Assembly (NCBI RefSeq): GCF_022539665.2 | Contig: NC_081334.1 | Coordinates: 310,001-374,000 of the forward strand | Direction: 5' to 3' | Source: Daphnia carinata | Lineage: Eukaryota | Length of the DNA: 64,000 bases | Shown: positions 15,719-61,005 of the stretch, in pieces | How positions within the stretch are numbered: position 1 is the stretch's first letter | Layout of the letters: every line of letters starts with the position of its first letter | Program-made: the position numbers and the translations under genes | Notes under the pieces: generated by a model | What the model saw: only the letters and a program-made list of their open reading frames with translations | Databases searched by the model: none | Told to the model about the DNA's origin: nothing

Positions 15719-16443
15719 TGTAAAGCATCTTCCCGTGTGGGAAGATGGACTTTACCGAAATTAAGACAATAAATGTAAATCGAACTCGAGGCGTTTTACC
15801 CACAATGACGTCTGTGTTTATTATAAGCTAGGACATAAGAAATAAAAAGACAAGAGAACAAAAGACGAGAAGAAACATTCAGAAAACAAGTTAAAAGAGG
15901 GAACAATTAAACAGGGTCTTACCGTGAACTCACGAGTGAAAGAATGGAAGATAAAATGACACAAGACGAGCTTGGAATTCAGCTTCCACACAGACAGAGT
16001 TTGGAACGCAAGAATTGGCACAGAACGTCTGAGAAGACTCAAGACGAGAACGAGTTTTCTACTCAAAGGTTTGGTTACTGAAACATTAATTAAGGCACAA
16101 TACTACTCAAATAAGCAAGAAAAAATGACTTAGGGCAACTACTCGGCACGGCTGCAACAACTTGTCTGATCTTCCTCAGATGCTGGGTTAACCACGGAAC
16201 TTTGCATATTGCAAAGTGGCGTGATTGGGAGGAGCTTGTAGGCTTCACGCGGTTAACCAATCAAAAGGACGCGTTCAATATGGTGTGATATTGGTGACGT
16301 ATCGTCTGCGTGAATCAGCTTGCAGGTGTTCATCTAGGTCAGCTGCACTGCGTATAGTGTTGCAATTGTCGTGCCCAGACTTGTATTTACTACTGAAGCA
16401 AAAGCGAGAAAAGTTAAAGTAAGATATATTCGGCTTCGTTACA
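15719..16443 (-). repeat. 3' LTR of element 2
   Basis: TGT...ACA, direct repeat of 27727-28451. Confidence 0.97.
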
Positions 16444-16476
16444 TCACTCCCGGCGGCGTGAGATTACGTCCCGTAA

Positions 16477-17523
16477 TCAGAGTTGATGCATCGGAATCGA
16501 TTCGGGAGCCGCAGGTCTTGGATCATCGGAAGGGCGACAGCAGACAGCCCAGATGAGGGTAAAAAGACCGCAGGCATAGCAAATGCGCAAGAAGATAAGC
16601 ACCAAAAGACATAAAATGCCGATGAAGAAATAATTCGTGATGGTGTCCCACCAAGATGTATAAGTTCCGACACTGGCTGATGTCATTAAGACGGTCGACG
16701 CACTGTATTTGTGGTGTAAGGCAAATTCAGGTGCAGGATGTTCATTAATCGCGGCGGCTATATCGGCCATAATGTTCATATGATTTAGCATATTGTCAGT
16801 ATATGCCGGGTTGCTTCGATGGTCGTAGTCGAGAAACTCGACATTTTCATACCGAAAAGAATGTGCAAGTGTTTGTTCCGGTAACACAATGTTTGCTTCG
16901 ATTGGTTTCCATGTGTCGTTACGGAAGGCGTAAGGTTTGTCGTTAAAATTAACGAAACCGTTAGTCCAATAACAAGGGGAATATTTAACAAGTTCCCATC
17001 CGTCGAGATTAATGGTGTAATTTTGAAATTTCGGCTGCGGTCCGCAAGATGTCAGTATAGTCTCAAATGTAACATTTAAAGTTTTACATTGAATTAATAC
17101 AACTGTTTTTCCAAAGGCCTGTAATTTCGTGCATTGTGGTAAATTTAACTGCGAAGCTGCTAACCATCCGTTATATTGAGCCGTTGTAACGGCCCTTTCG
17201 TGTTTGGCCTTGCGAGCTTCACATTGCATTAGTCGAATTTGTCTTGCTAATTCATTTTCATGATCAGTAAGTTGGTCTCGAATATATTGTATATTCGCGG
17301 GTACGTTTAAATTTTCATCGGTAGATGGCGCCGGAGTCTCCAAAGTGGTTGGTAAATTTTCCATGATGGCCGCCGCCGAAACGGTGAGTTTCGATTGGCC
17401 GATGATCTCGAACGACGAAGTTCTATTCTGAATTCTAAGTATTTTTATGCGGTGACTGGTGTCATTGGGAAGAAGAAAGAATAATCTCAATGATGCAAAA
17501 GAAAAATTCGGGAAACAATGCAT
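16477..17523 (-). CDS. env: env-like glycoprotein (putative class III gB/chuvirus-like, C-terminal half)
   Basis: Lies just upstream of the PPT. Heptad helix ending QCE, Cys-rich beta region, several N-x-S/T sites and a C-terminal TM (YFFIGILCLLVLIFL). No clear signal peptide, so the true start is uncertain. Confidence 0.75.
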   Translation of the reverse strand: MHCFPNFSFASLRLFFLLPNDTSHRIKILRIQNRTSSFEIIGQSKLTVSAAAIMENLPTTLETPAPSTDENLNVPANIQYIRDQLTDHENELARQIRLMQCEARKAKHERAVTTAQYNGWLAASQLNLPQCTKLQAFGKTVVLIQCKTLNVTFETILTSCGPQPKFQNYTINLDGWELVKYSPCYWTNGFVNFNDKPYAFRNDTWKPIEANIVLPEQTLAHSFRYENVEFLDYDHRSNPAYTDNMLNHMNIMADIAAAINEHPAPEFALHHKYSASTVLMTSASVGTYTSWWDTITNYFFIGILCLLVLIFLRICYACGLFTLIWAVCCRPSDDPRPAAPESIPMHQL

Positions 17524-17728
17524 CGATTAGACAGGAGAAGAAGAAAATGCATGATATAATTGTAACGACGGGGAAAAACACAGGTCAATTTTCATTAGAG
17601 TGACACAAAGGCGCATACGGATAGGGTACAAGGCAAGTGAAACACGAGCAAGGGAAGAGAAAAAAAGGGCGCGCTTGGTGGGCTTGGAGGGTGCATTTTT
17701 CCTAAGCTCAACGTAAGGCGTAACACAG

Positions 17729-17800
17729 ATGCTAATAGCTCAAAAGGTAGAGCGCTCGGCTGTGATGCTGTGGGTCTGAGGTTCGAATCCTCAGTAGGAC
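17729..17800 (+). other. tRNA-like Pol III module (His/GTG-like), antisense to element 2
   Basis: Well-formed D arm TAGCTCAAAAGGTAGAGC and T arm TGAGG-TTCGAAT-CCTCA; acceptor and anticodon stems degenerate. Confidence 0.7.
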
Positions 17801-18442
17801 TAGATAACTCATCCATTAATGAGGGTTCTAACCTACGAAAAAGGTTATACTTCATTCTTTATGGTAAATAAAACGACGCGAAAGCTAACTTTTATTTTCT
17901 AAGTCCAACGCATGAGAAATGGTATGGGGAAAGAAGTAAAAGGGCGCTAAAGGGAATGAAACATATGGGGAAGAAAGAGAAGCGGCTCGTGCGAGACAAG
18001 GGAAATTTGTCCCAGACACACGGAGTTGGGGAAAAATAGGCGGAAGATAAAATTTTGGGAGCTTATGTCTATTGTTTTGTTTAGAAGGACCAAAGGGGCA
18101 GGGAAGAACTGCATGAAATGAGAGAGACGAGAAGTTAAAAGAAGAAAAGGAGAAGAAGAAAAAGAAAATTTAGGGGGGAGTTTCAGAGAATTCTAATTTG
18201 TATAGTAAAGTCGAACGCATGAGAATATCTTTCCCATGCGCCGCTATAGGGAGGGCCCTCTTTTTTTTTTTTTTTTTTCTTTTACTTGTTGTCTTTTGGA
18301 TGGAAATCTTATGGATCGTGACATATTTATTTAAAATCAAGTGGGGCGAGTATTGTTGGTAGCTGGGTGTATTTTTTTTGTTAGGAAACATATGACAGCA
18401 TACAGATACATTCGGGATTGGGGTTACAAGGGAAGACAAAAT

Positions 18443-18805
18443 TCAATTTTCTTCCGGCGGCGGAATGGGACGGCGGTTTTCCGGGTCCAGATCCAGGATT
18501 GAAGCAAATACTTCGGTTGCCTGGCTCCATTCTTCACGTTCGAGGAGTTGAACGAGTTCCTCCGTGCGAGCTCTCGTCAGCCTGGCGATTCTCCACCGAT
18601 TTTGGAGATGGTGCTGGAAGTTTCTCAGCCCTGATCCGGATGGGCGCCGGTGGTCTAGGGCTTCCCGCATGGCCCGGTCCTTCTCTTCCACTGTTGAAGA
18701 GGTGCTAGTAGCTTCCGCCACTATGAAGGATCGTTCAGCGGTAAGACCGTGACAGATTCGTTTCCAAGGAGGCATCCCCGTTTGACGGGAGTGATTTTCG
18801 GCCAT
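18443..18805 (-). CDS. Accessory ORF A of element 2 (120 aa, unknown function)
   Basis: ATG start; TATA-like CATATAAG ~100 nt upstream; AATAAA downstream; shares the E-W-x2-A-x6-ILDLDP-x2-R motif with ORF B. Confidence 0.7.
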   Translation of the reverse strand: MAENHSRQTGMPPWKRICHGLTAERSFIVAEATSTSSTVEEKDRAMREALDHRRPSGSGLRNFQHHLQNRWRIARLTRARTEELVQLLEREEWSQATEVFASILDLDPENRRPIPPPEEN

Positions 18806-19139
18806 CGTGTAGAATAGCAGTGGTTCTCTTGGTAGCTTTGGTAGTGCTGTTGATCTCCAGTGATGAATTGAGAGTGGAGGCTCAGCGTTCGAACCGCGTT
18901 GACTTATATGGTCAAACCTTCCACTTGTAGGTTACCACTTCTTCACATCTATGTTTTTTTTGTTTTTTTTTTTTTTTTTTTCAAAAGTTCGAGTTCAACA
19001 CTAAGTCCCTCGAGGTGGCCCTCGATTGTTTTAGCAGGTGTCAGTTTTCGCTGCCGTTGTCATGAGGGGAATTATTTATTGCTGTGTAGGGTCGAGTAGC
19101 ATTCTTCCAAGGGCGCACATGGTTCGTTTTTCTTTCATT

Positions 19140-19180
<41 letters not shown>

Positions 19181-19326
19181 ATTCACTACTGTTTATTAAA
19201 TGGTTATAGAGAAAGAAGGAAAAGTGAAAGAAGAAATGACGAAGTATAGTGCTTCTACACGTGAATAGGGTTGATTAGGCGTAAATTGGGTATATCAACT
19301 TGAGAGGGATTCGGGGTATAGGCGTT

Positions 19327-19396
19327 GGCTACGTGGCATAACGTTAGAGCTTCTGACTTCGACTCGGGAGTCTTAAGTTCGAATCACGCCGTGACC
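19327..19396 (+). other. tRNA-like module (Arg/TCG-like)
   Basis: Acceptor GGCTACG/CGTGACC; anticodon arm TCTGA-CTTCGAC-TCGGG; B box GTTCGAATC; T stem unpaired. Confidence 0.65.
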
Positions 19397-19799
19397 TTGA
19401 CTAAGAATTTAACTGGTAGATTCCTCTTGAGTTGCTGAGGGTAGCTAATTCTTAATTGTTATTCTGTGGGTTGATTAACAATAAATGTTAAAAATTCTAA
19501 TTATCCTGTTTCAAATTTTCGAATGTTGCTGAGTATTGAAATTTATATTTATACAACTATATGGATAGTTGTTATAGCCCTAGAATATGGTTCAGAATTC
19601 GAAGGTTCAAACCGCGCTATGATCATAGCTCGAAAAATTTTGTAAGTACCTCACGAGTTGCGAAGCTGATGAATTTATAACTAGTTTGCTATGATTGAAA
19701 AATTTTTTATTAGATATTTGAAGGTTCTGGTTTGGGCTGAGATTGTTTTGATATATAAGATGGGGTGTACATATATCTCTAGACGCCATAGCGACACAG

Positions 19800-19946
19800 C
19801 CCTCGACCACCACTCGGGAGTCTCAGGTTCGAGTCTCGGCTCAGCCTTCATTGCAAACCTTAAAATGAACTATTTTCTTTTTTTTCTAAAATTAGAGTTG
19901 TGAAAACTTGAGGGTCTTTGGTTCAATCCTTGCCTCGGCTGTTTTT
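19800..19946 (+). other. Two further tRNA 3'-half-like modules with B boxes
   Basis: CTCGACCACCACTCGGGAGTCTCAGGTTCGAGTC, and GAGGGTCTTTGGTTCAATCC...CGGC followed by a T6 run. Confidence 0.45.
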
Positions 19947-20270
19947 TGAAATACCCCTAAATCGATATGTTAGCTTTTATTTTTTTTATTTTCCTACATT
20001 TCCTTTTTCCTTTTTCATTCGCCTGTTCTAGATCGTCGGTTTATTTAAAAGTTTGTTTTAAATAGTAATATAATAAAAGATCTATGCATCCTACTGTGTT
20101 TATTCGATTTACTTTTGTAGAGAATATAATGTGAAGGGGGAAACAAAATTGTTGGATAGAGTCCTAGCCTATGGGGAATAAACACATGTTTCTACTGGGG
20201 TAGGGGTAAATAAGGGGAAAGAGAAAAATGTCTTGTTCGTGGTCTTGATCCTTTTTTGTTTTCCGTTTTC

Positions 20271-20705
20271 TTATTGTGGGATGGTGATAGGGTCGCGCCT
20301 CGGTCTTTTACGACCAGTGTCCCACTGCTCAGGCAAAAAGCTGTAAAGAGGGGGGTAGCGCTTTGTTGGATCCAAATCCAGAATTTTTTTCAGGGTGTTG
20401 ACTGCTCCCTCCCAATCTTCGGTGTAAAGATTGGTATTTAGTTGACGGATGAACGCAGCCGTGCGTTCCTCGATATGGCGCTCGTAGCGGTCACGTTCCA
20501 TGTCCCATTTTTCCATGTCGTCGAGCTCCGGGGACTGAGGCGTTTGGCTGACGATGTTGCTAGATTTGTCCGGAACGGGCGTCCAATCGGCGTAGACGGG
20601 GATGGCAGCCATTGGTGCCATCACTTTCTCTGCTTGCTCGTCGGCACTTAGCCACTCGCAAGCTGCCTGGGATTGCTGGTTAGCAGAGTTAGCGCACGGG
20701 TCCAT
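20271..20705 (-). CDS. Accessory ORF B of element 2 (144 aa from first ATG, unknown function)
   Basis: AAAAATG context; TATA-like GTATTTAA ~100 nt upstream; EDWEGAVNTLKKILDLDPTKR is paralogous to ORF A. Confidence 0.7.
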   Translation of the reverse strand: MDPCANSANQQSQAACEWLSADEQAEKVMAPMAAIPVYADWTPVPDKSSNIVSQTPQSPELDDMEKWDMERDRYERHIEERTAAFIRQLNTNLYTEDWEGAVNTLKKILDLDPTKRYPPLYSFLPEQWDTGRKRPRRDPITIPQ

Positions 20706-20862
20706 TTTTCGGGATTTTTTAAAATTGTGGAGCACAATTGAGGAGAACTTTACTCAACAAGTGTCGAAAACGTTGTGAAGTCCCTTTGAAATGTCTCGCT
20801 GTTAAATACACGACGGTTGTTATGTGATCGTTTTGATTTTGTTTCGACGAAAATGTACTCTT

Positions 20863-23800
20863 CTAATTCCTATAACGCATTGGTAGTTTTCGATTTCTTT
20901 GCGGGCGTCCGGTAGCATGTTGGGGTGGCAGTATTTCTTGCTGACTGATGGCAGGCGCCACCTGTCGGGCGTCAGATTCAAGATTAATCACCGCAGCTGC
21001 GTTGTTTCCGTGAATTGTTGTGGTGTTCTTTGTTTTATTGGACGCACCAACATGAGTTGACTCATTATCGTCTGAAGTATATATTCCTTGGGTTTCGCTG
21101 ACGATATGAGAATGTTTATTGTTTTGGGTGGCGGCCATTTGCAATTCCGCTGCCTCCAATTCCACAGTTTCCAATTCCACACTTTCCGCATCCATACTTT
21201 CAACATTTCTTTCCGTACCCACATTTACTGTTTCCAAAGGTTCCAATTCCATATTTTCCCATTCACTCGCGTTTCGCTCTATGTTTTCCATAGTTTCGAT
21301 TGTTTGGGTGGAAATCGATTTACGAAATCGATTCTCGAACTTCGAAGGCGTCTCGATAGGGGGACAATGTTCGTCTTTCCATAACATTGTTTCGTACAGG
21401 GGTTTTAGGCGGTTAACATGAGTGCGTTGACAAATGTATGAATTATCAGCAATATCTACTGTATTATTGGAATATACTTTTACAATTCTATAAGGACCTT
21501 TATATTTAGAGGTAAATTTCCTACTATCGCCCTCTTTGACTACTCTAATATCTAATAATACCCTATCTCCTACCACATATTGTTTTACATTTGCTCTTTT
21601 ATTATATTGTTCCTTCTGACGTTTTCTTGCTTTTTCGCTCTCCTCACGGACGCGTTGGAAACTATAACGTAAGCGATCAGCTAAATTACCTACGTAATCT
21701 GATGCGGAGATAAATGTTTTTGGGGAAGCGTCAAGGAATTCATTAATAGGTATATTAGGATCTCTACCGTGCAGTAAATAATATGGGGTTTCACATGTCG
21801 AAGAATGGACAGAACTACGGTAAGCAAATAAAACATCATCCAGCATATCTTCCCAATTCTCATGTTCTCCATCTTTTAATTCCTTTCTCAACATTGTGGT
21901 CAATGTTCGATTAAATCTCTCAGTTTCGCCATTGCTAGCTGGATTGTAAGCAGTTGTTAACTTTTGATCAATTTTTAATTTCTTACAGAAGTAACGGAAT
22001 AATTTGGACGTGAAATTAGTTCCACGATCGGAAAGGATGGCTTTAGGCATACCATGTCTAACTATAATTGTTTTATATACACAATCTGCTGTCGTCTGCG
22101 CTGTTTGATCTTTTAACGCAATAGCCTCTACCCACCGGCTAAAATAATCGGTAATAACTAAAATATAATTATTTCCATTAGGTGAAGCCGGCGTAATAGG
22201 ACCCAAAAAATCCATTCCAATGACCTGGAAAGGGGCCTTTGCTATTTCATGAGGATGCAACAATGCTTTATATGAAGAAGAAGTGTTGGCAATGCACACC
22301 TCACAAGCTTGACAGTATTCTTTAATTTCCTTTCTCATATTCGGCCAATAATAATGATTCTTTATTTTCAAATAGGTTTTATAAAAAGCTAAATGCCCAC
22401 CCATCGGTGCGTCATGTAGTTCTTTGAGCACTAGATGGCGTAACGATGCAGGCAAGACTAACTGATGGTTAGTTTCGTTTCTTTTGCTATCGGTAGATGG
22501 CAGCACGTGCCGGTAAAGTGTTCCATCAATAACTTCAAAATACTCAATTTCTTTCACCCAATCTGGTTTAGATTGAAGAAAAGCTTGATCAAGTTCTCCG
22601 TTATCCAAATAATTACGAATGGCTATGCAAAGCTCATCGTCCAACTGTTTTTCACAAATTAAGGTAATATTGCTCACTGTTTGGATACTAGCTATTTTTA
22701 AGCGGGACAGGCAATCTGCGTTTTGGTGAACACGTCCTGGCCTATATTTCAATTCATAATTCGTTGCGGCCAATAGTATAGCCCATCTCCCTAATCTACC
22801 ATTATTATCTTTCTGTTCTTTAAGCCATTGCAAGGGACGGTGGTCACTAATAATTTCAAAGGGTTTATCTAATAGGTAATGCCTAAAATGCTTAATGGCA
22901 TCTACGACTGCTAAGGCTTCCTTTTCTGTCGTACTATAATTCGATTCTGCTTTTGTCAACTGTCTACTGGAATAGGCTATGGGATGTTCCTGGCCATTTT
23001 GAATTTGGGATAGCACTGCTCCAATACCGTAGTCGCAGGCATCGGTGAAAAGAATAAATTTTTCATTGAAATTGGGGTAAGCAAGAACTGGTGGCGTTAC
23101 TAGAGAATTGCGCAATTTCTCGAAAGCAACTTGTTCCTCAGGTCCCCAATAAAAAGGCTTTCTGCTAAGATCTTTATGCGTTAATCGAGTTAACGGTTTG
23201 GCAATTGATCCAAAATCTTTAATAAATCTTCTGTAATATCCAGCTAATCCGAGAAACGATCTGATTTCGTCGACTGAAGTCGGTGTTTTATAATTGACTA
23301 TTTTGTCAATTTTGCTCGGATCCGGTTTAATACCATCGGTCGATATTACGTGACCTAGATAATTTACTGAGCGTTTAATAAACTGGCATTTCTTGAGTTT
23401 CAATTTCAGATTAGCATCTCGTAATAATTCAAAAATTTCTCGAATATCACGTAAATGATCGTCGAAAGTGTCTGAAAAGATGATAACGTCATCCAAATAA
23501 ACTAATGTTTTACGCCCCAAGACGTCTCTCAGTACGTAGTTCATTAGCCGTTGGAATGTGGCCGGTGCATTGCACAAACCAAATGCCATACGTTTAAATT
23601 CGTAGAGGTTGTTTTCTACCACAAACGCTGTTTTTTCAATAGCTGGATCGTCAATTTGAATTTGCCAATAGCCTGAAGCTAAATCAAGAGTTGTGAAAAA
23701 TTTCTTCCCATATAATTTGTCTAATGTTTCGTCTATTCTAGGCATAGGGAATGAATCTTTTTTCGTAATGCTATTCAATTTTCTATAATCAACACAAAAT

Positions 23801-24909
23801 CTTTGTTCACCACCTTTCTTTTCTACTAAAACCACGGGTGAAGCCCATGGGGAATGCGAATATCGGATTACATCTGCATCAAGCATTTCTTGAATTTTAT
23901 CATCTAATAATTTCCTTTGGTTATTTGTTACTCTGTATGGGCGTTGTCGAATGGGGCCTCGTCCTTGTGTATCAATCGTATGTTTTATAAGGTTGGTGTT
24001 TCCTAATTCCGAATCTTTGGACGCAAACAAGTCGTGAAAGTCGAGTAATAATTTTGAAAGCGGTTCTTGAAATTCTGAATCTACTTCTGTGAGTAAAATT
24101 GGCTCAATTACTGGTTTAGGATTATCTTCTAATTTCGCTAACGAAATTTTTCCGATACAATGTTTAATTATTTCAATTACGCCTAATTTAGTGTTCCTAT
24201 GAATTTTGATTTGATGTAGTGAATGATTCTCGACCAAAATTTTATAAGTTCCATCTTCCGATACATTTCCGATAAATTCTTCGATATAAATGCCTGCTGG
24301 CAAATCTTGTGCTGGGGTAAATATAAATGCTGTATTTCGTGGGACATACGGAAATGAATCTTTCATTTCCGCTGCAATTACTGTCGACGTCTGACGAAAT
24401 AGCGTCGTCTTTTTGACCGTAGTAACCGCCATGTCGGGTACCTCAGAGATGGCTGATCCCTGCTCATCCCTCGCTAGGTAAATGCTTCTGGCTTCTCCGT
24501 CAAGCCGAAATCCGTGCTTCTGGATTGCATCCCATCCAAGGATACAGTCCTCAGAAACACCATTAGTTACAATAAATTCTTGTTCAAAAACTGTTTCTCC
24601 GTATCGTACGGGTAAAATAACTCCTCCCAGCGTATGTAATTTCTTCTCCCCTACATCATATAAATCGAAATCAAGTTGACTGCAGATCACCTGACCTCTA
24701 GGGGGTAACTTATTAAACATCCTCTCGTGGATAATACTTTTAGACGCGCCTGTATCAAATAATGCTTGTAACGGAATCTGGAATATTTTTAATGGAATTC
24801 TAGGGGTTGATTCATTCGTAATAGTGGTTAATTTTGCGACTTGTCGGGGTTTAATCTGAGGCTCGTTATCAACTGACCCGAAGCTACAGTTGATAGTTAC
24901 TGGTTTCCC
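20863..24909 (-). CDS. pol: pol of element 2 (PR-RT-RH-IN), expressed by -1 frameshift from gag
   Basis: LFDTGA protease (upstream of the track's ATG), YLDD RT, TDAC...SDHRPL RNase H, HHCC plus DDE integrase and GPY motif. Frame is open back to the slippery site. Confidence 0.97.
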   Translation of the reverse strand, partial: GKPVTINCSFGSVDNEPQIKPRQVAKLTTITNESTPRIPLKIFQIPLQALFDTGASKSIIHERMFNKLPPRGQVICSQLDFDLYDVGEKKLHTLGGVILPVRYGETVFEQEFIVTNGVSEDCILGWDAIQKHGFRLDGEARSIYLARDEQGSAISEVPDMAVTTVKKTTLFRQTSTVIAAEMKDSFPYVPRNTAFIFTPAQDLPAGIYIEEFIGNVSEDGTYKILVENHSLHQIKIHRNTKLGVIEIIKHCIGKISLAKLEDNPKPVIEPILLTEVDSEFQEPLSKLLLDFHDLFASKDSELGNTNLIKHTIDTQGRGPIRQRPYRVTNNQRKLLDDKIQEMLDADVIRYSHSPWASPVVLVEKKGGEQRFCVDYRKLNSITKKDSFPMPRIDETLDKLYGKKFFTTLDLASGYWQIQIDDPAIEKTAFVVENNLYEFKRMAFGLCNAPATFQRLMNYVLRDVLGRKTLVYLDDVIIFSDTFDDHLRDIREIFELLRDANLKLKLKKCQFIKRSVNYLGHVISTDGIKPDPSKIDKIVNYKTPTSVDEIRSFLGLAGYYRRFIKDFGSIAKPLTRLTHKDLSRKPFYWGPEEQVAFEKLRNSLVTPPVLAYPNFNEKFILFTDACDYGIGAVLSQIQNGQEHPIAYSSRQLTKAESNYSTTEKEALAVVDAIKHFRHYLLDKPFEIISDHRPLQWLKEQKDNNGRLGRWAILLAATNYELKYRPGRVHQNADCLSRLKIASIQTVSNITLICEKQLDDELCIAIRNYLDNGELDQAFLQSKPDWVKEIEYFEVIDGTLYRHVLPSTDSKRNETNHQLVLPASLRHLVLKELHDAPMGGHLAFYKTYLKIKNHYYWPNMRKEIKEYCQACEVCIANTSSSYKALLHPHEIAKAPFQVIGMDFLGPITPASPNGNNYILVITDYFSRWVEAIALKDQTAQTTADCVYKTIIVRHGMPKAILSDRGTNFTSKLFRYFCKKLKIDQKLTTAYNPASNGETERFNRTLTTMLRKELKDGEHENWEDMLDDVLFAYRSSVHSSTCETPYYLLHGRDPNIPINEFLDASPKTFISASDYVGNLADRLRYSFQRVREESEKARKRQKEQYNKRANVKQYVVGDRVLLDIRVVKEGDSRKFTSKYKGPYRIVKVYSNNTVDIADNSYICQRTHVNRLKPLYETMLWKDEHCPPIETPSKFENRFRKSISTQTIETMENIERNASEWENMELEPLETVNVGTERNVESMDAESVELETVELEAAELQMAATQNNKHSHIVSETQGIYTSDDNESTHVGASNKTKNTTTIHGNNAAAVINLESDARQVAPAISQQEILPPQHATGRPQRNRKLPMRYRN
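24867..24909 (-). promoter_or_regulatory. -1 ribosomal frameshift signal
   Basis: G GGA AAC heptamer in the gag frame, 7-nt spacer, then stem TATCAACTG/CAGTTGATA enclosing C(TTCG)G. Confidence 0.85.
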
Positions 24910-27692
24910 TGATGTTGAGGGGGCCCTGGAATATTAGGTCTTTGTGAATTCCTATATTTCGGACAATTATTAGACTTATGCCCAATTTCTCGGCAGGAGT
25001 AGCAGACTGGAGGCTGGGCTTGTTCCAGACTGTGACGCTGGAATTGACGACAGTTGAACTGAGTGTGACCGCGGTAACCACAAAATTTACAAGTTATTAT
25101 CTGCTGATCAGACCTGTCACTATTATTATGGTTAGGTGGCCTTGAGAAAGGGGGCGCAGCTTGCGTTTGTCTGTTTGGAAATCGAGGAGGTTGGTGTTGG
25201 TAAGGATTAAGATTATAATTGTTATTATTATAATTATCATTGGGGCGTTGCTGGGGAGGCCTCCAGTTCCTGCCTTGATCAGGGTTAATCGATTGAAATG
25301 AAACTTGTTTCCTATAAGGAGTTCCTGGTGTAGCAGAAGAATAATCTTTCCTATCTTGCTGGAGTTGTCTTACAGCCTGTGTGAGTTCGTGAATAACCTC
25401 CTTGATCTCATCTTTATCCGACTTTGGATTATCCCCTTGCTTATGGCTTTGGCGAATATTAGCAACGGCACTGCTTACAATTTCTTTCTGGTCAAGTAAC
25501 ATTTGCTTAAGTTCTTTTAATTCCGAATTTTTGTTGTTAAATGACTCGTCAATTGCCCTAACAAATTCATGCTTCTCGCGGTCTGTTTCTAGAGCTTCCA
25601 ACCGAACAGCATAGACGCGTGTTGCTGCCACGAGTTCGTTATAATCTTTAAATTCCTTATATCTGACTTTAGCTTGTAATTTTGAATCTAATCCTTCGAT
25701 AAATTTCTGCATGAGGATAACGGCGAAGGATTTTTCCATATACCCATCAGGATATGCCTTTTTAAAAATTTCCTGTAAACGATGAGCATAGTCAACAATT
25801 TTTTCTCCAGGTTTACGTTTAGCTTTATTGAATTTCTTAATGTACACATCAACATTTTCGTCTCCGTGGAAGTGATCGAGCAAAGCCGTTTTAATCGAAC
25901 CATAGTCGTATGGATGATTTTTAATTAAGGTTTGTATGACAGAAAAAGCTTTATCTGTAAATTTTGCACGCATCATTTGAATAATTTTCCCTTCAGACCA
26001 TCCTGCCCCATCAATTATACTCTCAAAAGATTCCAGCCAAGAGTCAAAACGAGAAATTGGACTTCCGGAAAAAGGAGGGAGAAGTTGTAGACGTGAAAAG
26101 GTATGCTGGTTGTTTTGCATATCATTCAAATCATTAACTGTAGCTGCCTTGATAGGGGAATAAGAGTAAGCCATATTGTCGGTAAAAAAAGTTACAGGGG
26201 AGTTTGGAGCTCCGTGATGGTGAGTTTGCGTGATGCCTGGGATGCGGTTTGAAACCGACCGGGATTCGCTTACTTTGTTGTCGGTCAGTTGTATCGACGG
26301 TTTTTGAATCGTAGTCGTTCTGTCTGGCGCTTGTCTGTCTGCTGTGATGATGTCGAACAAGTTGGGGTGATATCCGGCTCTTCCTGATTTTCCCGAATGG
26401 ACGATAGCAACTGTTTCAATTGTTTGGCAGTCTGGGTGAGTACGTTTTTGATGATGGACGATAGGTGCTTGTGGCACGGTCGTGCCACTCTCCGGAAGTG
26501 GGTCAATCTGTTTTCGAGCAGTAGCAGTTCGGGTAACAGTGGTTCCGAGCTGGTGATTGATTGTAGCTTCCTTAAGAACGAGAGTAGGTTTAGTATTGCC
26601 GTGAGAAGAGTCAGCTGGAATTCCAACAATGTTTTCTCCAGGTGGATCGAGAATTCGAATGTTTTCAGGATGAGGAACTCGTAATGCCTCTCTTCCTCGC
26701 TTGCTTGCGTTGTCACCTTCGGCACAATGCCGAAGAGGGCCTTGTCTTTGGCTGGTACGAACGTCTGTAGTTCCTCTATGCTGTACGTTTGTCCTAACAG
26801 GAACGTCGTAAACTGCCTCGCATACGTCGTAAAGGACGTTGTCAACTCGGTCGCCTGTTGGTCCGCCTTCCGCGTTGTCCGCTTTATCCTCCCGCTGGCC
26901 CTCACTTCTTGAATCGCAGCTAGGTATCTCAGGAACACTGTTGGCGTCTCCACGTCTGTCAGCAAATGTGGTTTGCCCAAGGGGCGGCTCCTCAGCCCGA
27001 AGTCGTTCAGTAGTTGGGTCAGCTGGCTCCAAATTTTCGGGTCGTGTGACTGGAAGTCCAACACCCTCTCCTTCAGACACTTGAGCGCTAATATTAGGGA
27101 TGGAATCGGACTCGACGGCGTCGGAAATACTTTGGATGGATTGCTCTGGATCTCGTGGTATAGGTGATGGAGACTCAGGTTGAGGTGATCGTCCATTCAC
27201 TGGGCTTTTCTTTTGAAAGAAGCTTAAAAGAGTACTCGAGAGGAGACTAGCCTTTGATTCGCTTTTCGTAGGTGATTTTGGAGGAGCAAGACGAGAAAAG
27301 AATTTAGCATAGACCGATCGTGGACGTTGAGTGGCTGCGGCGGTAGACTTAGCACGTGTACCAGTTTGTTTATGGGTGGGTTTAACGAACGGAGCGACTT
27401 CCTCATAAGCAGGATTCGACCGTAATTTACGTAACTGAGTATTATCTGTCTGCACTTTAGGTTTCAAAACAGGGGAAGCAGATTTCGTAACGACCTCAGT
27501 GTCTGCTTCTGACGCTTTACAGCCCTGAAACTTATCTAACGTGGACGAAGAACGACCTGGTAGTTTCTCAAAATCAATTAACTTAGCAACTGTTTCGTCG
27601 GTTATTTGAACCACTGGCGTTATGGGAACAAGGGGGGTGCTTACAGGTGTGCGAGGTATCTTATGGCCGCCATAAATAACATCATCAGTCAT
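24897..27692 (-). CDS. gag: gag of element 2 with long low-complexity N-terminal extension
   Basis: 931 aa; capsid-like LPPFSG...WLESFE region; two CCHC knuckles (CKFCGYRGHTQFNC, CYSCREIGHKSNNC). Confidence 0.92.
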   Translation of the reverse strand: MTDDVIYGGHKIPRTPVSTPLVPITPVVQITDETVAKLIDFEKLPGRSSSTLDKFQGCKASEADTEVVTKSASPVLKPKVQTDNTQLRKLRSNPAYEEVAPFVKPTHKQTGTRAKSTAAATQRPRSVYAKFFSRLAPPKSPTKSESKASLLSSTLLSFFQKKSPVNGRSPQPESPSPIPRDPEQSIQSISDAVESDSIPNISAQVSEGEGVGLPVTRPENLEPADPTTERLRAEEPPLGQTTFADRRGDANSVPEIPSCDSRSEGQREDKADNAEGGPTGDRVDNVLYDVCEAVYDVPVRTNVQHRGTTDVRTSQRQGPLRHCAEGDNASKRGREALRVPHPENIRILDPPGENIVGIPADSSHGNTKPTLVLKEATINHQLGTTVTRTATARKQIDPLPESGTTVPQAPIVHHQKRTHPDCQTIETVAIVHSGKSGRAGYHPNLFDIITADRQAPDRTTTIQKPSIQLTDNKVSESRSVSNRIPGITQTHHHGAPNSPVTFFTDNMAYSYSPIKAATVNDLNDMQNNQHTFSRLQLLPPFSGSPISRFDSWLESFESIIDGAGWSEGKIIQMMRAKFTDKAFSVIQTLIKNHPYDYGSIKTALLDHFHGDENVDVYIKKFNKAKRKPGEKIVDYAHRLQEIFKKAYPDGYMEKSFAVILMQKFIEGLDSKLQAKVRYKEFKDYNELVAATRVYAVRLEALETDREKHEFVRAIDESFNNKNSELKELKQMLLDQKEIVSSAVANIRQSHKQGDNPKSDKDEIKEVIHELTQAVRQLQQDRKDYSSATPGTPYRKQVSFQSINPDQGRNWRPPQQRPNDNYNNNNYNLNPYQHQPPRFPNRQTQAAPPFSRPPNHNNSDRSDQQIITCKFCGYRGHTQFNCRQFQRHSLEQAQPPVCYSCREIGHKSNNCPKYRNSQRPNIPGPPQHQGNQ
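26285..27196 (-). CDS. Overprinted 303-aa ORF in +1 frame of gag (unknown, Leu-rich helical)
   Basis: ATG-initiated and stop-free for 303 codons while the gag frame is also open; amphipathic composition. Confidence 0.6.
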   Translation of the reverse strand: MDDHLNLSLHHLYHEIQSNPSKVFPTPSSPIPSLILALKCLKERVLDFQSHDPKIWSQLTQLLNDFGLRSRPLGKPHLLTDVETPTVFLRYLAAIQEVRASGRIKRTTRKADQQATELTTSFTTYARQFTTFLLGQTYSIEELQTFVPAKDKALFGIVPKVTTQASEEERHYEFLILKTFEFSIHLEKTLLEFQLTLLTAILNLLSFLRKLQSITSSEPLLPELLLLENRLTHFRRVARPCHKHLSSIIKNVLTQTAKQLKQLLSSIRENQEEPDITPTCSTSSQQTDKRQTERLRFKNRRYN

Positions 27693-27726
27693 TGTGGTTG
27701 AGTTCGAGAAACCGCTGCCACCATAA

Positions 27727-28451
27727 TGTAAAGCATCTTCCCGTGTGGGAAGATGGACTTTACCGAAATTAAGACAATAAATGTAAATCGAACTCGAGGC
27801 GTTTTACCCACAATGACGTCTGTGTTTATTATAAGCTAGGACATAAGAAATAAAAAGACAAGAGAACAAAAGACGAGAAGAAACATTCAGAAAACAAGTT
27901 AAAAGAGGGAACAATTAAACAGGGTCTTACCGTGAACTCACGAGTGAAAGAATGGAAGATAAAATGACACAAGACGAGCTTGGAATTCAGCTTCCACACA
28001 GACAGAGTTTGGAACGCAAGAATTGGCACAGAACGTCTGAGAAGACTCAAGACGAGAACGAGTTTTCTACTCAAAGGTTTGGTTACTGAAACATTAATTA
28101 AGGCACAATACTACTCAAATAAGCAAGAAAAAATGACTTAGGGCAACTACTCGGCACGGCTGCAACAACTTGTCTGATCTTCCTCAGATGCTGGGTTAAC
28201 CACGGAACTTTGCATATTGCAAAGTGGCGTGATTGGGAGGAGCTTGTAGGCTTCACGCGGTTAACCAATCAAAAGGACGCGTTCAATATGGTGTGATATT
28301 GGTGACGTATCGTCTGCGTGAATCAGCTTGCAGGTGTTCATCTAGGTCAGCTGCACTGCGTATAGTGTTGCAATTGTCGTGCCCAGACTTGTATTTACTA
28401 CTGAAGCAAAAGCGAGAAAAGTTAAAGTAAGATATATTCGGCTTCGTTACA
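27727..28451 (-). repeat. 5' LTR of element 2
   Basis: Direct repeat of 15719-16443; followed on the - strand by the PBS at ~27712-27723. Confidence 0.97.
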
Positions 28452-30879
28452 TTAGGCTAAACCTAAAAACCAATGGAATGTCAGTGACAGCAGAAATACT
28501 GTCGTGAACATCTGTGAGCAGTTATATACCAAGGCTGGTAGGCCTACACATTCTCCTTTAAACAGATATGTGTTGGACTTCCTGTTACAACTTGGTAAAT
28601 TACTTTGGTTGTAGTCTTGATGCTGGTAAGTTTAAAATTAGGGAAAAGTTGTTGGCCAAAATAATGACTTTGTATCTCTAAAAAACAAGCCTTAGGACCA
28701 CCCCAGATGTGACATGAGAAAATACTACAAATAATAAATATAGTAAAACGATTACACGCGGGCACACAATTTTACGACGCCTGCGCCCTTTGGAAAATGA
28801 AGAGCGATCAATTTGGAGTCGCTGCATTGTTGAAAACCATTTTCTTTTAGCAATAGACAAGAAGACAGAGGATTGTTGTAGGAAGCAGTATTCTAACTGA
28901 CAACAAGTGTCTGATTCCTTGTATTTATCACCGCCTGAAGTGGATAACGGAAATGTCACGAGAACTGCAAACATCATCGATAGAGAACCTGTTTTTAGGA
29001 CCATCATGACGCACTCGTTTAACGACACGTTACAGTTTAACGACATATTCAATATGTCGTGGGGACGTAAGTTTCGAACAGAACGATCTTAGTTTATCTT
29101 AAAATAGTTCTGGCAGTTCTATATTGTAGATCTTTTACATTGCCCCATAGGTTTCTTGATACCTTGTGAAAATTGGCGTGAACCACAGCACATTCTTTTC
29201 CGGTTGGCTTACGGTTGCTTCTTCATTTCATGCCTGGCATCAGATCACTCTGTAGGCATTGTCACCATGCACGCCGCTCTTCTAGTAAGTAAATTCATAT
29301 CAATCTAATATAACAAGGTTTCCTTCTTTAAGTAATGTAAATGACGATTTCTATGCCAGTTGGTTTGTTATATTCTACTTGGGCCTGAAATATGCTCTGT
29401 ACTCCTGATATATTTTCTTGGACCTTTGGTTTCGTGTTCCTTAATTGTTGTCGACTGATGTACGATCTCTAACGTATACGGCCTATGCGTCTCGACCCAG
29501 AAGTAGAGGCCCTTTTTGCGCTTCTCTTCCAACCTCTTGGGGTAAGGTGTTCGAGATAGGTGCCATAGTAGTTTAAATTTGTTATTCAAAAGGTTGTATC
29601 AATAGATAAGTCGAATGGCATTCAAAAAGTTGGTGAGCCGAGAATACGCTGAGATCTCTACCCTATAACCTGGTAAAAAATCATTACTAGAAGATATTGT
29701 TAGCTCTGTTTTAATAAATTTCCTTTCTTAACCATGGGGGATTTTTATGCTCTTCAAAATCTTACACGCATTGATCGACTATCAATGATGCTTTCCGGAA
29801 AGGTATCGAAAATCGCTATTTTACATTTTTCTAAATCTTCTTGTACTCGTAATAACAACGTAAAAAACAGGTGCAAGTGGTATCCAACGGAACAATACTG
29901 CACACCATAGACGCAAAAGACTTTCTTGATTCTCCGGAATTTGAATCTAGTCGTGCTTCTATCGAAGACAAATTTCGGGTAAGCCAAGATCGTCATCAAG
30001 ATGATTTGAGCAGGATTTTACACAAGTTAAAATTTCCCCAGGTATCAATTGCTGCCACTGGAACAACGTGTCGTTACATCAGTTGGCAGAGATCAACCCT
30101 CGAATACCTTTTCGTCAAAGAAACAACTTTGGAAAATGTTTTTTTTTTGCGTTCTCGTCGCTAGGAAGGTGATTGACAAAGTCTTTGCCATGAACAAAAA
30201 AGTTTCACCGTTGTCCATAATTGGTCTATTAGTTGAATTAATCAAAATTAAAGCCTCAAAATTGTATTCCAGTTAACAGTTCAGAGAGGCCATCTGTTAG
30301 ATATCCGTCTGCCGGGAATCGCCAATTGTAGTTACGATTTGTCTCGAGAAACATCATCAAATGCATCATCAGATTTAAGTAATTTTGAAAACTAAACATT
30401 TGGCCAGTACGGCTGACTTAAAATTCCTTTAGATCTGACTTTCGTTCCACAGGCCCCTCACTGAAACTCCAGCAGAATGGGGGTTTGCCCAATTGTGTAC
30501 TCTCTCCAATGACTCGAGCAAAGAATTCTGAAACAGAATTCCACTGAATGTGGTCGATTTTACGAAAGATCTCCATCTGTTTTTTAAAATCTCATTACCA
30601 AGATTGATTATTGACTGTCAAGAAGAGCGGGTTGGAGCGGTTTTCGACGAAAAATTTATCATGGCGAAGGAAAACGAATGCCAAACGTCCACAAACAGAT
30701 TTTGTAAGCATCAAGCCTAAATGAACAGTTAAGTTGTTAAAATAACTTTTCTTCTTGATCTCATTCTTGTATAACAAAACCTGTACATCAATTATTAATC
30801 CAGTTTTTTACTTAAATATTGAATTAAATTACTGTTTACATTCCCGAATTAATTCAAATTTAGAACCAGAATAATTTAC

Positions 30880-53555: not shown

Positions 53556-53976
53556 CAAGAGAAAATGAATCATTATGTAAAGCATTCTTTTAGCAATGGA
53601 AAGAATGACTTTACATTATTTAAGACAAATTGTAGTTTAGAAAATTAAACTCGGAAGGCGTTACCACAATGTCGAATATATTTGATTCTAATAGGCCAGA
53701 AGGATAATAAAAGAATACACAATTATACGATATAAATGGGAAACGGAAATATAAAAGTGGAGTTATGCGAGTTTAGTCTTACCGTCACCGCTGTGGCGAA
53801 AATAGAATAAGATGTCGAACGTTGTAAGAAAAAGAGTAGAGAAAAAAACAGGACTTGTCGGTCGCACAAGAAGCGATGAGAAGCACTCCCAATAATTATT
53901 CAACAAGAACAAATTGAACTCGCTGGATTTGAAGAATTAGAACAACACTTGTAGCACTAAGGGTGAGAACTAGAAC

Positions 53977-56900
53977 TTGGGTAGCCGGTGAAATAGGACT
54001 GAAACGAAATAGGACTGGAGAAATTAAAACTTTTAGAACAGTCCTATTTCTCCTCGGCATCAGTCCTATTCCTCCTTAGAAATAGTCCTATTTATTTTAT
54101 TTTGTTCCCATAGGAACGATATGTCTCCAATCCGGTAGGCAACATATTGCGTAAGAGCGTCAGCTTATATCCATTTCCCTTTGTAAAAAGCCGATGGTGT
54201 TAACTCATAACTTAAATGGTTCACCAAACATTTATCTTTTATCCTATTTTAATTTAAATTGCAGGGGACCATTAAATATGTTATATCTAATATAGTTCAT
54301 TTAATAAAATACTACAACGGCCACACCAGAAATATTTATTAAATTTTTCCTACTTTTTAGTGCATAAATAACTTTTCCAGTTGCACTCATGTGGTACTTG
54401 CTCATACAATTATCAGCAACGAATAACAAGCAAGTCTTACCATATCGGTAGCGCTCTAACCTGTGACACGAGTAGTCCTATGTTTGATTCTGCGTGGTTA
54501 CATTTCTTCTGAGGTTTTTAATAACATTTGCGGTTAAGTTAACTATGAATAGTAGAAGAATGTTAATGAATCTTCGCATGTATGAAAGCTAGTTCCTTAC
54601 CAGGAGCAAGAAGAACTGTTGAGATACAAGAGAATGGATGAGAGAGGAGATGGTAGATAACGGTAGATGGGCGAAAAATAAATGATTTGTAATTTAACAT
54701 TTTAACAATTTCTCAACTTCTTTACCAGGAAGAGGATTCTACCACCGAAGTGGATGGCCGAGCATGACATAGCATTACTCATCAAGTGACGTATGCCAAA
54801 GGATTAAGTTAATATTTATATTGACTTTGAAATAAAATTGATGAAGAAGATTTATGGGTGCTAAAGCCGAGGAAGTTGAAGATGGTTGCCGGTGGCGAAT
54901 AGAAAGAAGAGATTTGCAGAAGTAAAAGATCACCGGCTTTAGCAGATTAAATCTTATAGGTGCTTAAGACATAGAGGCCGAAGATTTATGCCGGCGGCGA
55001 ATCGAAAGCAAAGATTTAGGAAGGTCAGAGATCTTCGGATTAAGCAGCTTCAGACTTATGGTTGCACCACATTTAATGACTACTCCATACGACCTTGTAT
55101 CCCGGAAGCTGATGACGCTTGCCTGCGGCGAATTGAAAGAAAAGCTTTACGTAAATCCAGGTAATCTTCACTCACCGCAACAGCAAGAAGCGCTTCCTTC
55201 CTATTTGCCGAGAGGTGTAATTTCGTTTGGCTCCTCGCCTTTTTGGCAGACTATATATATGGATACAATAATACCAACAACTTTAATAGTTCGTCTTAGA
55301 CTTCGATCTAGCACTTACCATTACCATGTCTTCAGCTCGCTTTCAATGTTCGGGATGCAAATCCAGTGTTATCGGCCGGAAGCAATTCTGCGTTTGCCTA
55401 GGCTGCCATGTTCCTGTCCATCGTCTTTGTTGTGGTGTTACCTTCCATAAGGGTGTTTCGCCTTCATGGAAGGAGTTCAGCAACTTTTATCGGTGCGCCA
55501 TGTGTTCTAGTGGTAGTGCAGTCCTAGGTTCCACCGAAGATGTAGCGGATGTTGATGGTGCAGTAGCTGGGGGATCAAAAGGCGATGTAGCTGTTGTTGC
55601 TGTTGCTGGTTCTGAAGGTGGTCGTCCTAAGAGATTGCTGAAGCCAAGGAGCATTTTCGACCCTTCCGACGTAGGCAAGAAAAAGCCTCTAGTTCCAGCT
55701 TCTCCACGTCGTCCCTCATCACCACGACAACGATCAACTCCTCGCACATCTCCTCAGACTAATTCTCCGCGTCGTCCAGCAACTCCGTCTTCTCCACCCT
55801 CCCCACTTTCTCCGTTGACAATGTCACCATTGGTGAGTCTTGTTGTGTCTCCTTTTCTTTTTATGTTGTCTCCTCTTCTTAGGTCAACTCCTCCAGTTCC
55901 ACCACCACGACGAGGACGCAGGGCCCAACCTCAGCTACTAGACCAGTCGCCAGAAGCTGCAATCCCAAGGAGTTCATATGCAAGCGATGGAAGAAGAGAG
56001 GAAACATTTGCCGAACCCAGCGAATCGACAATGGAGGTATATATTTCTTCTTTATCGCAACATGTCTTAGTATTTTATTAACTAAACGTTTTTGTTAGCA
56101 ATCATCGCATGAGGAACCGACGGAGGCATCCTACAAGATTCATGACGAAGGAACGAACAAGGGACTCCATAAGCTTACTGATGGATTAGGTAATAATTCG
56201 AATATAATTGCTAATTGAATAAGACTAAAAGAGGAATTCCTTTCTTACTATAGGATTTTGCTTCAGCAAAAAAGCCATCAGTAAGAGCACATATACATGG
56301 CGCTGTACCTCCCGACCTTCTGGAAACCCATGTAAAGCGATCGTGAAACAAAAGAAAACCCCCCTTTTGGATTGTTTGCTTAATTACAATAATGCTGACT
56401 TCACCCTTGTTCCCCACGATCAAGAGAACACCCACAATCACCCACCAGACATTGGAAACCAGAAAAGGGTAAGTGTTTTTAGAAAAAAGTAATTTGAGTT
56501 TCTAAATGTGTAACTTGCAATATTTATACATAGGTTGACATCTTTAGAGAATCGAAGGAAGCCTGCGTCGATCAACAGTTTACGGACCCCAGGGAGATCT
56601 TATTTACCGAACTGAAGAAACGCAAGTCCATAGAGGGAAGACACATGCCGGATGCTGATTTGGCCACTCGTCGTTTACGGTACATTAAATAATAAATTAT
56701 ATCAATGATTATGGTTAACGATTAAACTTTATATTCCAGTTACAAGAGAGCGAAGGTTATGCCCGCTAATCCCAGGAAAGATGACCCTTTCTTTCCTGTA
56801 GTGGAGAATTTCTTCCCACCCGACTGGTATCAGGGCGCCATCTTTGCTGGAACGGCCCAAGACCGTGCCCGGCACCTTCTGTTCTTCACCCCTACCATGA

Positions 56901-59900: not shown

Positions 59901-59944
59901 TTCTCCAGTCCTATTTCGTTTCAGTCCTGTTTCACCGCCAATCG
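53977..59944 (+). mobile_element. Mutator (MULE) DNA transposon with ~550-600-bp TIRs
   Basis: Inverted repeats ~53980-54525 and ~59335-59943 with AAATAGGACT repeats; candidate TSD GAACTAGAAC in a repetitive flank (ends +/-3 bp). Confidence 0.9.
55326..58140 (+). CDS. Multi-exon PHD-FLYWCH-MULE transposase (integrity uncertain)
   Basis: N-terminal C4HC3-like finger; YTWRC FLYWCH-like segment; WFMDATF, VTDFERA, GCNFHWCQA and WSCF...RTNKDCEGMH. Confidence 0.8.
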
Positions 59945-60389
59945 GAACTAGAACAGAAGATAACTGAAAAACTGAGGAACTGAAGAACTGAAGCGAACTA
60001 ACTTTTGGGAACAAAAAGGGCATTCTTTTATACTTTCACAAGATTGAGGAAAACATAGCATTTTCGTCAGATGATTCCGGATGCGGAATGTCGCACACGC
60101 ATTTCGTATTCATGGAAATGCATGGCGCGATGTCCTACGCATCTAGCACATCCAATCAGCAATAAGCAGGATGTCAAATGTAATATAAAAAAATAGATTT
60201 CGACGAAAGGGCATCAACACTTGAAGTACGATATTTATAAGACGTAATTTTTCAAAAGAAGGGCAATGGACGTAACATATAATTATATTAATAAGAACAA
60301 CAAACAGACAACAATATAATTCAAAGATTGTATTCTTCTCATGGCTTCGTTACATCACTCCCGGCGGTGCGAGATTACGTCCCGTAATC

Positions 60390-61005
60390 AGACTTGGTAA
60401 GCGAAATCCGGTTCTGGTTCTTGAATTGGGCGACAGCATAACTTGCTGTTAAGTCCGAAAAATCCACAGCCATAACAAATGCGTAAGAAAAGTAGACCCA
60501 GGAGGCAGAGTACGCCGATGAAGAAATAATTTTTAATAGTTTCCCATCAACTGGTATAAGTAGTCACTCCCAGATGCAGATAACAAAACGTTGGTGACAC
60601 TTGGACGATTATTGGTTGAAAACTCACTCGGCGAATGTTCATTCATCGCTGCGGCAATATCAGCCATTATACTCATGTGATCCATAATAGTTTCACTATA
60701 CGCAGGGTTACTTTTATGTTCATAGTCGAAAAATTTCACGTCTTCATACCGAAAAGAATGCGCAAGAGTTTGTACCGGTAATACGATACTTGCGTTCACG
60801 GGCTTCCAAGTGTTATTGCGAACCCATAAGGTATGTCATTGAAGTTCACAAATCCATTGGTCCAAGAACACGGCGAGTATTTCACGAGTTCCCAACCGTC
60901 TAAATTAATTGTACAGTTTTTAAAGTTTGGTTGCGGACCGCAAGATTACGAAGAAGTTACGACGGTTTCAAAGGTCACATTTAAAGGTTTGCACGTTATA
61001 CTACA
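60390..61005 (-). pseudogene. env: env remnant of element 4
   Basis: CGPQP...LDGWELVKYSPC and TLAHSFRYEDVKFFDYEHKSNPAY are homologous to 16477-17523; frameshifted. Confidence 0.88.

Follow-up and report, generated by a model that had tools for sequence, protein, structure and literature searches.

A recent Ty3/Gypsy insertion in Daphnia carinata with a 5'-deleted gB-type env and conserved accessory genes

The window analyzed here, a 64,000-nucleotide stretch of Daphnia carinata contig NC_081334.1, contains a 12.7 kb LTR retrotransposon on the minus strand (15719–28451; Table 1). It has the features that define a Ty3/Gypsy element: direct LTRs with TG...CA ends, a target-site duplication and a primer-binding site, and a zinc-knuckle gag followed by protease, reverse transcriptase (RT), RNase H and integrase. 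Reading along the minus strand, pol is followed by accessory cassette A, the tRNA-like modules M5 to M2 (between cassettes A and B), cassette B, module M1 (between cassette B and env), and env. A sequence-only reading of the locus had described a young element with identical LTRs and had suggested a search for insertion polymorphism, and both points were borne out. Comparison of the 5' and 3' LTRs showed no differences over 725 bp. A contig of DNA run X1, with a depth of 39.9, joins position 15714 directly to 28452, with four shared letters, corresponding to the empty site. Pieces of the element are present in the same run at a depth of 3–5 and with identical sequence (for example, 365/365 in ORF B). 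Run X2 yielded no matching pieces. Thus, the insertion is not fixed. The low-depth pieces may derive from rare carriers, from another locus, or from carry-over from the source sample.

Table 1. Positions of the element's features and of its decayed relative, in window coordinates.
Feature	Position	Strand	Remarks
5' LTR	27727..28451	minus	725 bp, TG...CA ends
3' LTR	15719..16443	minus	725 bp, TG...CA ends
Target-site duplication TTAG	28452..28455; other copy 15715-15718
Primer-binding site (PBS), tRNA-Leu type	27712..27723	minus	follows 5' LTR
Candidate polypurine tract (PPT)	16444..16451	minus	short purine-rich tract before 3' LTR; identical sequence in neighbouring relative
gag	24897..27692	minus	931 aa from first ATG
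Overprinted ORF	26285..27196	minus	303 aa; +1 frame of gag
Predicted -1 frameshift heptamer, gag to pol	24903..24909	minus	G GGA AAC; sequence and fold
pol (protease, RT, RNase H, integrase)	20863..24933	minus	domain search
Accessory cassette A	20271..20808	minus	TATTTAA at 20808, ATG 20705, 144-aa ORF (20271-20705)
Module M5	19873-19951	plus	B box
Module M4	19775-19856	plus	B box
Module M3	19554-19634	plus	B box
Module M2	19325-19405	plus	B box; Rfam tRNA 25.0 bits at 19327-19397
Accessory cassette B	18443..18908	minus	TATAAG at 18908, ATG 18805, 120-aa ORF (18443-18805)
Module M1	17729..17801	plus (antisense to element)	A and B boxes; Rfam RF00005 29.8 bits; first T4 at 17890
Non-coding segment marking the deletion junction	17440..17577	minus	homology to neighbouring relative
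env C-terminal half, gB/chuvirus-type	16477..17440	minus	central helix to transmembrane segment; frame open
Decayed relative	about 53575..64000	minus	LTR split by 5.9-kb DNA transposon

The gag protein starts with a long, low-complexity N-terminal half, followed by a capsid-like region and a CCHC knuckle. It was matched by the Pfam family zf-CCHC and, below the cut-off, by PNMA and Retrotrans_gag. Both gag and pol are open, and the domains follow the Gypsy order, as had been stated in the sequence-only reading. The description of the element as intact holds for these two genes, but not for env, which has neither a signal peptide nor its fusion domains (see below). The frameshift heptamer is located two codons ahead of the gag stop codon, with a hairpin downstream, and Pol is very probably produced by a -1 frameshift at this site.

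The ORF overprinted on gag had also been noted from the letters alone. None of 2000 nulls in each of three tests reached its length (one permutation got as far as 300 codons), and both frames are open beyond chance in the overlap. The protein has 26 homologues at E ≤ 0.001, several of which aligned from residue 1, and of ten homologues whose records were checked, four are named proteins of D. magna. Given its length and these homologues, the ORF is a real gene. Of 40 proteins taken from the homologues and their clusters, three also match the gag frame, in or just before the overlap, so the dual coding looks ancestral to the subgroup. In the more distant relatives L011, L012, L014 and L019, where gag DNA is present, no overprinted ORF was detected. 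A ribosome coming from the primer site would meet six ATGs ahead of the overprinted one, which has a stop codon directly in front of it, and the ORF is therefore likely to be translated from a separate subgenomic mRNA. (Frameshifting from gag into the overprinted frame was set aside on account of this stop codon, and an 850-aa fusion, P0093, was read as a single frameshifted copy, since its cluster mates are split.)

AlphaFold predicted a confident, all-helical bundle for the overprinted protein, with a pLDDT of 84.7 and a pTM of 0.80. Foldseek returned nothing at E ≤ 0.001, the best structural matches (Z of 10–11) were to helical bundles of a generic kind, the STAT coiled coil among them, and a search of the Atlas gave only sub-0.9 matches to DUF2465. 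The modeled protein thus lacks a specific fold match, and no function could be obtained from its fold. A parallel exists in Cer1 of C. elegans, which has been placed among the Ty3/gypsy elements (PMC13524379), and which encodes CERV, an accessory protein that is partly in another frame from gag and is needed for export of the genomic RNA (PMC10309623). However, CERV is a 517-aa protein made from a five-exon mRNA and has globular M and G domains (PMC10309623), whereas the overprinted protein is encoded in one 303-codon frame and is predicted to be entirely helical; the likeness is without demonstrated homology. We tentatively suggest that the overprinted protein might be an adaptor, either regulatory or associated with the particle, that has a CERV- or Rev-like role and would be made from a subgenomic mRNA.

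Two further ORFs, A and B, are found in the 3333 bp spacer between pol and env. They are divergent paralogues with a common C-terminal motif. A profile from which A and B had been left out was run against 2117 ORFs. It recovered ORF B at E = 8e-7 and ORF A at E = 5.5e-5, and these were the only matches after the ORF of the related locus L001. The family has 15 database matches, including D. pulex gene models and proteins; these homologues surfaced only after the L001 ORF had joined the query alignment. ORF A alone found no locus in the JGI metagenomes, and the A+B alignment matched no protein. Both ORFs match the family over about 40–55 C-terminal residues only, and could therefore be decaying.

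The conserved core of the family is predicted to consist of a helical hairpin and, after it, a proline-rich tail, and on balance we favor products that would act as small adaptors, made apart from gag-pol. The family had no match in BFVD or the Atlas and no Pfam family above the cut-off. Other invertebrate LTR elements also have additional ORFs: the extra ORF3 types of bdelloid elements are enzymes or membrane proteins (PMC5408684), and env-less Drosophila elements that reportedly infect the germline are a further case (PMC11952523). Sequence searches of the PDB gave no match, and none of six window proteins had an exact-sequence entry in the protein collection. The 42-residue hairpin gave Z scores of 5.8–5.9 to the C-terminal domain of Vta1 and the UVR domain of UvrB, among many ties, and the comparison of the family with Pfam Vta1_C gave E = 0.2. 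We treat the connection to ESCRT that this likeness to Vta1 might suggest as a weak lead and have kept it out of the evidence.

The predicted TATA motif is 103 nt from the ATG in both cassettes, and in cassette B an initiator-like motif is found at +33. Minus-strand transcripts would start near 20776 (A) and 18875 (B), and an AATAAA site follows each of the two ORFs. All four annotated relatives (L001, L004, L009 and L014) have a TATA motif with an initiator 31–35 nt downstream, 63–99 nt before the accessory ATG; the background of this motif is 2.5–8% of spacer positions. Since both TATA motifs in A and B are variants, and the initiator of A was let into the pattern only after it had been seen, the assignment of promoters in the element is made by analogy with these relatives. 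On this basis, cassettes A and B are probably short Pol II genes, each with its own TATA and initiator, that arose through duplication of a single cassette. The two "self-promoted" accessory ORFs of the sequence-only reading are thus real and belong to a conserved family, but what speaks for self-promotion is a pair of variant TATA motifs.

The tRNA-like modules in the spacer were recognized by their B boxes. The pattern RGTTCRANYC occurs five times on the plus strand of the spacer, compared to 0.13 expected, a number reached by none of 1000 shuffles. The plus strand of the window outside the spacer has one further match, and both LTRs have none. M1 scores above the Rfam tRNA threshold and M2 just below it. 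Several acceptor-stem pairs are broken in the Rfam alignments, and ARAGORN called no tRNA in the element; judged by the requirement for an intact cloverleaf, the modules are not functional tRNA genes. A good A box is present in M1 only; in M2–M5 the A boxes are degenerate, while the B boxes are clear. M2, M3 and M4, which are spaced at 228 and 222 bp and related beyond the box (z of 2.9–6.9), represent an old tandem duplication of about 225 bp. In these three modules, 6/6 columns of the B-box core are invariant, compared to 23/71 elsewhere, a comparison that is biased by the modules having been found through their B boxes. Outside of the box, the pairwise identity has dropped to 44–58%, showing that the array is much older than the insertion. 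The modules described as Pol III-like are thus real and above chance, but both boxes occur only in M1, and the modules are not supported as a family trait: L001 and L004, the closest relatives, have no such module, L014 has a single candidate that was itself built into the search model, and Rfam found no tRNA-like match in 13 related loci and ARAGORN none in 28.

B boxes bound by TFIIIC can serve as barrier sites. The modules could, quite possibly, be such TFIIIC-binding barriers or roadblocks, keeping the cassettes apart without giving rise to functional RNA. We rank this reading level with a second one, in which the modules are neutral passengers, i.e., heads of tRNA pseudogenes or SINEs that came to lie in a spacer free of constraint and underwent tandem duplication, next to protein cassettes that are nevertheless real. 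Passive pickup is plausible, since similar tRNA-like pieces are found in two other types of repeat in the window: the terminal repeats of a DNA transposon (54436–54507 and 59349–59425) and a different repeat (1781–1847 and 2453–2521). The piece in the latter repeat type also shares the stretch preceding the B box with M2 and M4. Another tRNA-like piece is found on a separate contig in run X1. The lack of modules in L001 and L004 also fits with passengers, as does the predicted folding, which was no better than that of shuffles in seven of eight stretches (best z, -1.7). Passengers would not be expected, however, to keep their B-box cores while the remainder diverged by 42–56%, nor to lie, all five, on one strand and between the cassettes.

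Some complex retroviruses carry clusters of Pol III microRNAs, and we considered whether the modules might likewise be Pol III genes, with small antisense RNAs as their products. M1, with its A and B boxes, has a T4 tract about 160 nt from the predicted start, and T4 tracts would yield RNAs of 72–190 nt for all five modules. However, considering the degenerate A boxes of M2–M5, the lack of stable hairpins in three extended folds (after M1, M2 and M4), and the mostly unrelated sequences downstream of the boxes, we find small-RNA genes unlikely and rank them below both barriers and passengers.

In env, homology to other env proteins starts only at about 17427–17445 and runs downward from there, and the N-terminal ≈260 residues of the full-length relatives have no match anywhere in the element. 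The remnant therefore has no signal peptide and no domains I–II, including the fusion-loop domain I. The adjoining non-coding segment (17440–17577) is homologous to DNA of the neighbouring relative that lies about 300 bp ahead of its env, with an alignment score of 83.5, compared to a maximum of 49 in 300 shuffles. From the position of this upstream homology, roughly 1.1 kb has been lost, including the signal peptide and the fusion-loop domains, and the claim of an intact gag-pol-env set must be given up. We found 56 env homologues, and all the named ones are from D. magna, D. pulex or D. sinensis, in line with a Daphnia host. The Monjiviricetes fusion family PF24664 was matched by six of the 21 homologues scanned, all below the cut-off (best E = 3e-6), while the Pfam scan of the element's own env ORF gave no match and a search of IMG/VR gave no env relative. 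Among 28 related metagenome loci, 23 have the N-terminal half of env, three do not, and two have no upstream DNA; a single env ORF of 551–657 codons is present in 14 of the 28.

The env remnant is almost certainly incapable of fusing membranes by itself, and with the front half lost, the element would be likely to retrotranspose within cells. Alternatively, the shortened env could have been selected as a small membrane protein that either blocks related elements or aids passage from cell to cell. Approximately 316 homologous codons are still open and the transmembrane segment is intact, there are in-frame ATGs at 17523 and 17364, and the related locus L020 likewise has an open env that is short at its 5' end. 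Nevertheless, we consider this improbable, since the signal peptide is missing (the N-terminal hydropathy peak is 1.75, compared to 2.5–2.7 in three relatives), and a recent deletion in a young element accounts for the open frame without any selection.

The decayed relative keeps an env remnant, with a signal-peptide region near 61007–61108, as well as part of pol and the 3' end of gag. It is 82% identical to the element over the end of gag and the protease, and 70% identical over env. Neither an accessory-ORF match nor an antisense B-box module was found in this copy. The copy at 53576–64000 had been taken to show that the element belongs to a family, and the kinship is indeed evident. The architecture, on the other hand, cannot be confirmed from a copy that is split by a transposon and that lacks the integrase and most of gag.

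An integrase tree was calculated from 11 rows (at least 280 aligned residues each) comprising only the window element and related loci. The element groups with L001 and L004, with a support of 100/99. Both loci have a pol-env spacer of ≈1.9 kb and an accessory ORF directly after pol. In L001, which has a full env, this is a 202-aa ORF that carries the A/B motif. The L004 ORF is unrelated to A (E = 0.13), and the ORFs of L004, L009 and L014 do not match the A/B profile. There are nine distinct loci with a complete pol-env interval (counting without L012, a repeat of L011); three of these have a spacer of 1.9–2.1 kb, in each case with an accessory ORF after pol, and the other six have a short spacer and no accessory ORF. 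Thus, the slot after pol recurs, while its content varies. A search of the spacer against the 28 related loci with blastn and tblastx gave no match. Judging from the sequence comparisons, the accessory cassette is a trait of the lineage and not a secondary insertion. That the spacer content was inserted secondarily into this copy, or is an assembly artefact, is very unlikely: although none of the X1 pieces listed covers the whole element, L001 carries the accessory family at the same position, the internal triplication predates the identical LTRs by far, and X1 contains identical spacer pieces along with a variant of ORF A that is 94% identical. The sequence-only reading had named a spacer unique to this copy as an outcome that would speak against its proposal; for the accessory cassette, this is not what was found.

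Branchiopod errantiviruses with a herpesvirus (HSV) gB-type env were described by Chary and Hayashi (PMC13524379), with Cdub_errantivirus_6 and Dpul_errantivirus_3 as examples. They share with the element the common gag-pol-env order of Ty3/Gypsy elements and a cladoceran host. Several near-identical copies in a genome are typical of the group, though not a requirement for membership. The 12-nt Leu primer-binding site listed for Cdub_errantivirus_6 and Dpul_errantivirus_3 is complementary to the PBS of the element, and Ceriodaphnia and D. pulicaria gB-type elements are listed with the same Leu primer 12-mer in the supplement (PMC13524379). The env of the element lies downstream of pol and is homologous to class III fusogens of the gB/chuvirus type, and the domain I–II motifs in the supplement match, by eye, the N-terminal halves of the env homologues (PMC13524379). 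Unlike the gB-type errantiviruses, the element has an env without domains I–II, rather than an untruncated env with a signal peptide and fusion-loop domain I, and it is 12.7 kb long, compared to about 9.8–11.3 kb between LTR ends for Cdub_errantivirus_6 and Dpul_errantivirus_3 (PMC13524379). It is an env-deleted derivative of this group, rather than an intact member. The proposal of an undescribed lineage could not be upheld, since gB-type errantiviruses that share the 12-nt Leu primer site are already on record from both Daphnia and Ceriodaphnia (PMC13524379).

With its conserved genes beyond gag, pol and env, the element resembles a complex retrovirus in its gene content, but comparable traits have been described before in Gypsy elements of invertebrates (PMC10309623, PMC4402516), and the analogy that had been drawn is tempered by the precedents of Cer1 CERV and the Tor internal promoters. 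The Tor3b/4b elements of Oikopleura, which are of the Gypsy type, have an internal promoter that lies within pol or behind it; that promoter drives env, whereas the predicted promoters of the element precede small accessory ORFs (PMC4402516). Pol III boxes derived from small RNAs are found in the Helenus, Ajax and Cassandra TRIMs, in which conservation extends to the boxes but not to a foldable RNA (PMC10886601). Those elements are short and non-autonomous, with their boxes in the LTR (PMC10886601), while the boxes described here are internal, multiple and antisense, and lie beside an intact gag-pol. Being 12.7 kb long and coding, with no B box in its LTRs, the element does not belong with TRIMp3 (Helenus/Cassandra).

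The main text of PMC13524379 makes no mention of accessory, overlap, sORF, tRNA-like or extra ORF, and its supplements make none of accessory or additional ORFs. In the literature covered, we found no description of the Daphnia accessory families or of the combination of features; annotation may exist in Repbase, Dfam or GyDB, in subscription journals, or in supplements on bioRxiv. The accessory genes are real and, it appears, undescribed. The B-box array is specific to this branch.

Taken together, the locus is best read, with a probability of about 0.6, as a recently inserted Ty3/Gypsy element that belongs to the gB-env errantiviruses of branchiopods, is missing the front half of env and probably retrotransposes within cells, and that carries lineage-conserved accessory genes predicted to be expressed apart from gag-pol. 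A bolder and rather doubtful extension is that these elements constitute a Daphnia errantivirus clade with a modular accessory genome, in which swappable, self-promoted mini-genes follow pol, a folded regulator is encoded on gag, and, in this branch, captured B boxes act as TFIIIC barriers that would keep the cassettes independently active and resist silencing by the host. If so, regulatory complexity of retroviral grade would have evolved separately in a crustacean Gypsy lineage.

In a genus that serves as a tractable model, the element and its relatives present two families of conserved proteins that are uncharacterized, together with a TATA/initiator cassette that recurs. Should the accessory genes prove to be expressed and regulatory, a further lineage of animal retroelements would have evolved accessory-gene complexity on its own, and these genes would be candidates for functions in anti-silencing, RNA export or budding. 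The B-box array would allow a test of whether tRNA promoters captured by transposons serve them as chromatin barriers, and the present copy provides a snapshot of env loss with the accessory genes kept. In surveys of Gypsy elements that carry an env, three ORFs are annotated and the sequence between them is left undescribed; the prefilter in PMC13524379 admitted pol-env gaps of up to 1000 nt, widened by hand to 3000 nt. Gypsy elements of 12.9–13.4 kb have already been reported from D. pulex (PMC2996953).

A second Gypsy element bearing env lies on the forward strand of the window (43301-49030), and its env is of the other type, being baculovirus F-like. The protease and RT of this element are found in separate frames, upstream of the 1397-codon frame listed in the table.

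Features in the window outside the young Ty3/Gypsy element
Feature	Position	Strand	Details
Duplicated repeat	1530-2731		short inverted segments
tRNA-like A/B-box piece, then T tract	1781-1847, 2453-2521	-	inside 1530-2731 repeat
Direct repeats	3665-3929, 6906-7170		265 bp, identical; within 3665-9113
Further Gypsy pol region (RNase H, integrase)	7150-8784		within 3665-9113
Direct repeats of second env-carrying element	37890-38191 / 50256-50557		98%
Nested insert in second env-carrying element	39542-43357		3.8 kb, inverted ends
RNase H, integrase and baculovirus F-like env	within 43301-49030	+	single 1397-codon frame
Immunoglobulin I-set exon	53053-53589	-	directly adjoins LTR of the decayed relative
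DNA transposon	53985-59869		5.9 kb, within LTR of the decayed relative

The immunoglobulin I-set exon abuts the LTR of the young element's decayed relative, which places that relative within a host gene for an Ig-domain protein or next to one. The inverted repeats of the DNA transposon that splits this LTR are 540 bp long and 94% identical, and each contains a tRNA-like B-box piece; a doubtful tRNA-Ser was also called inside the transposon by ARAGORN (59120-59199). The tRNA-like piece of the 1530-2731 repeat shares the stretch before the B box with M2 and M4, two of the five antisense modules in the pol-env spacer of the young element.

In the metagenome locus L014, a distant relative of the young element, a 103-aa cysteine-rich ORF directly follows pol, with a predicted promoter upstream that consists of a textbook TATA and a TCAGTT initiator (4530-4911 for promoter motifs and ORF together). 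The slot after pol is thus the same, but the accessory gene is different. In another related locus, L020, the env (823-1929) lacks its N-terminal half, as does that of the young element, and is still open over 368 codons.

In X1, the DNA sequencing run with the empty site, the host flanks near 28689-29000 diverge from the window by ≈5%, plus indels, whereas the low-depth pieces of the young element are identical to it. Mixed genotypes, carry-over or recent spread could each account for this mismatch.
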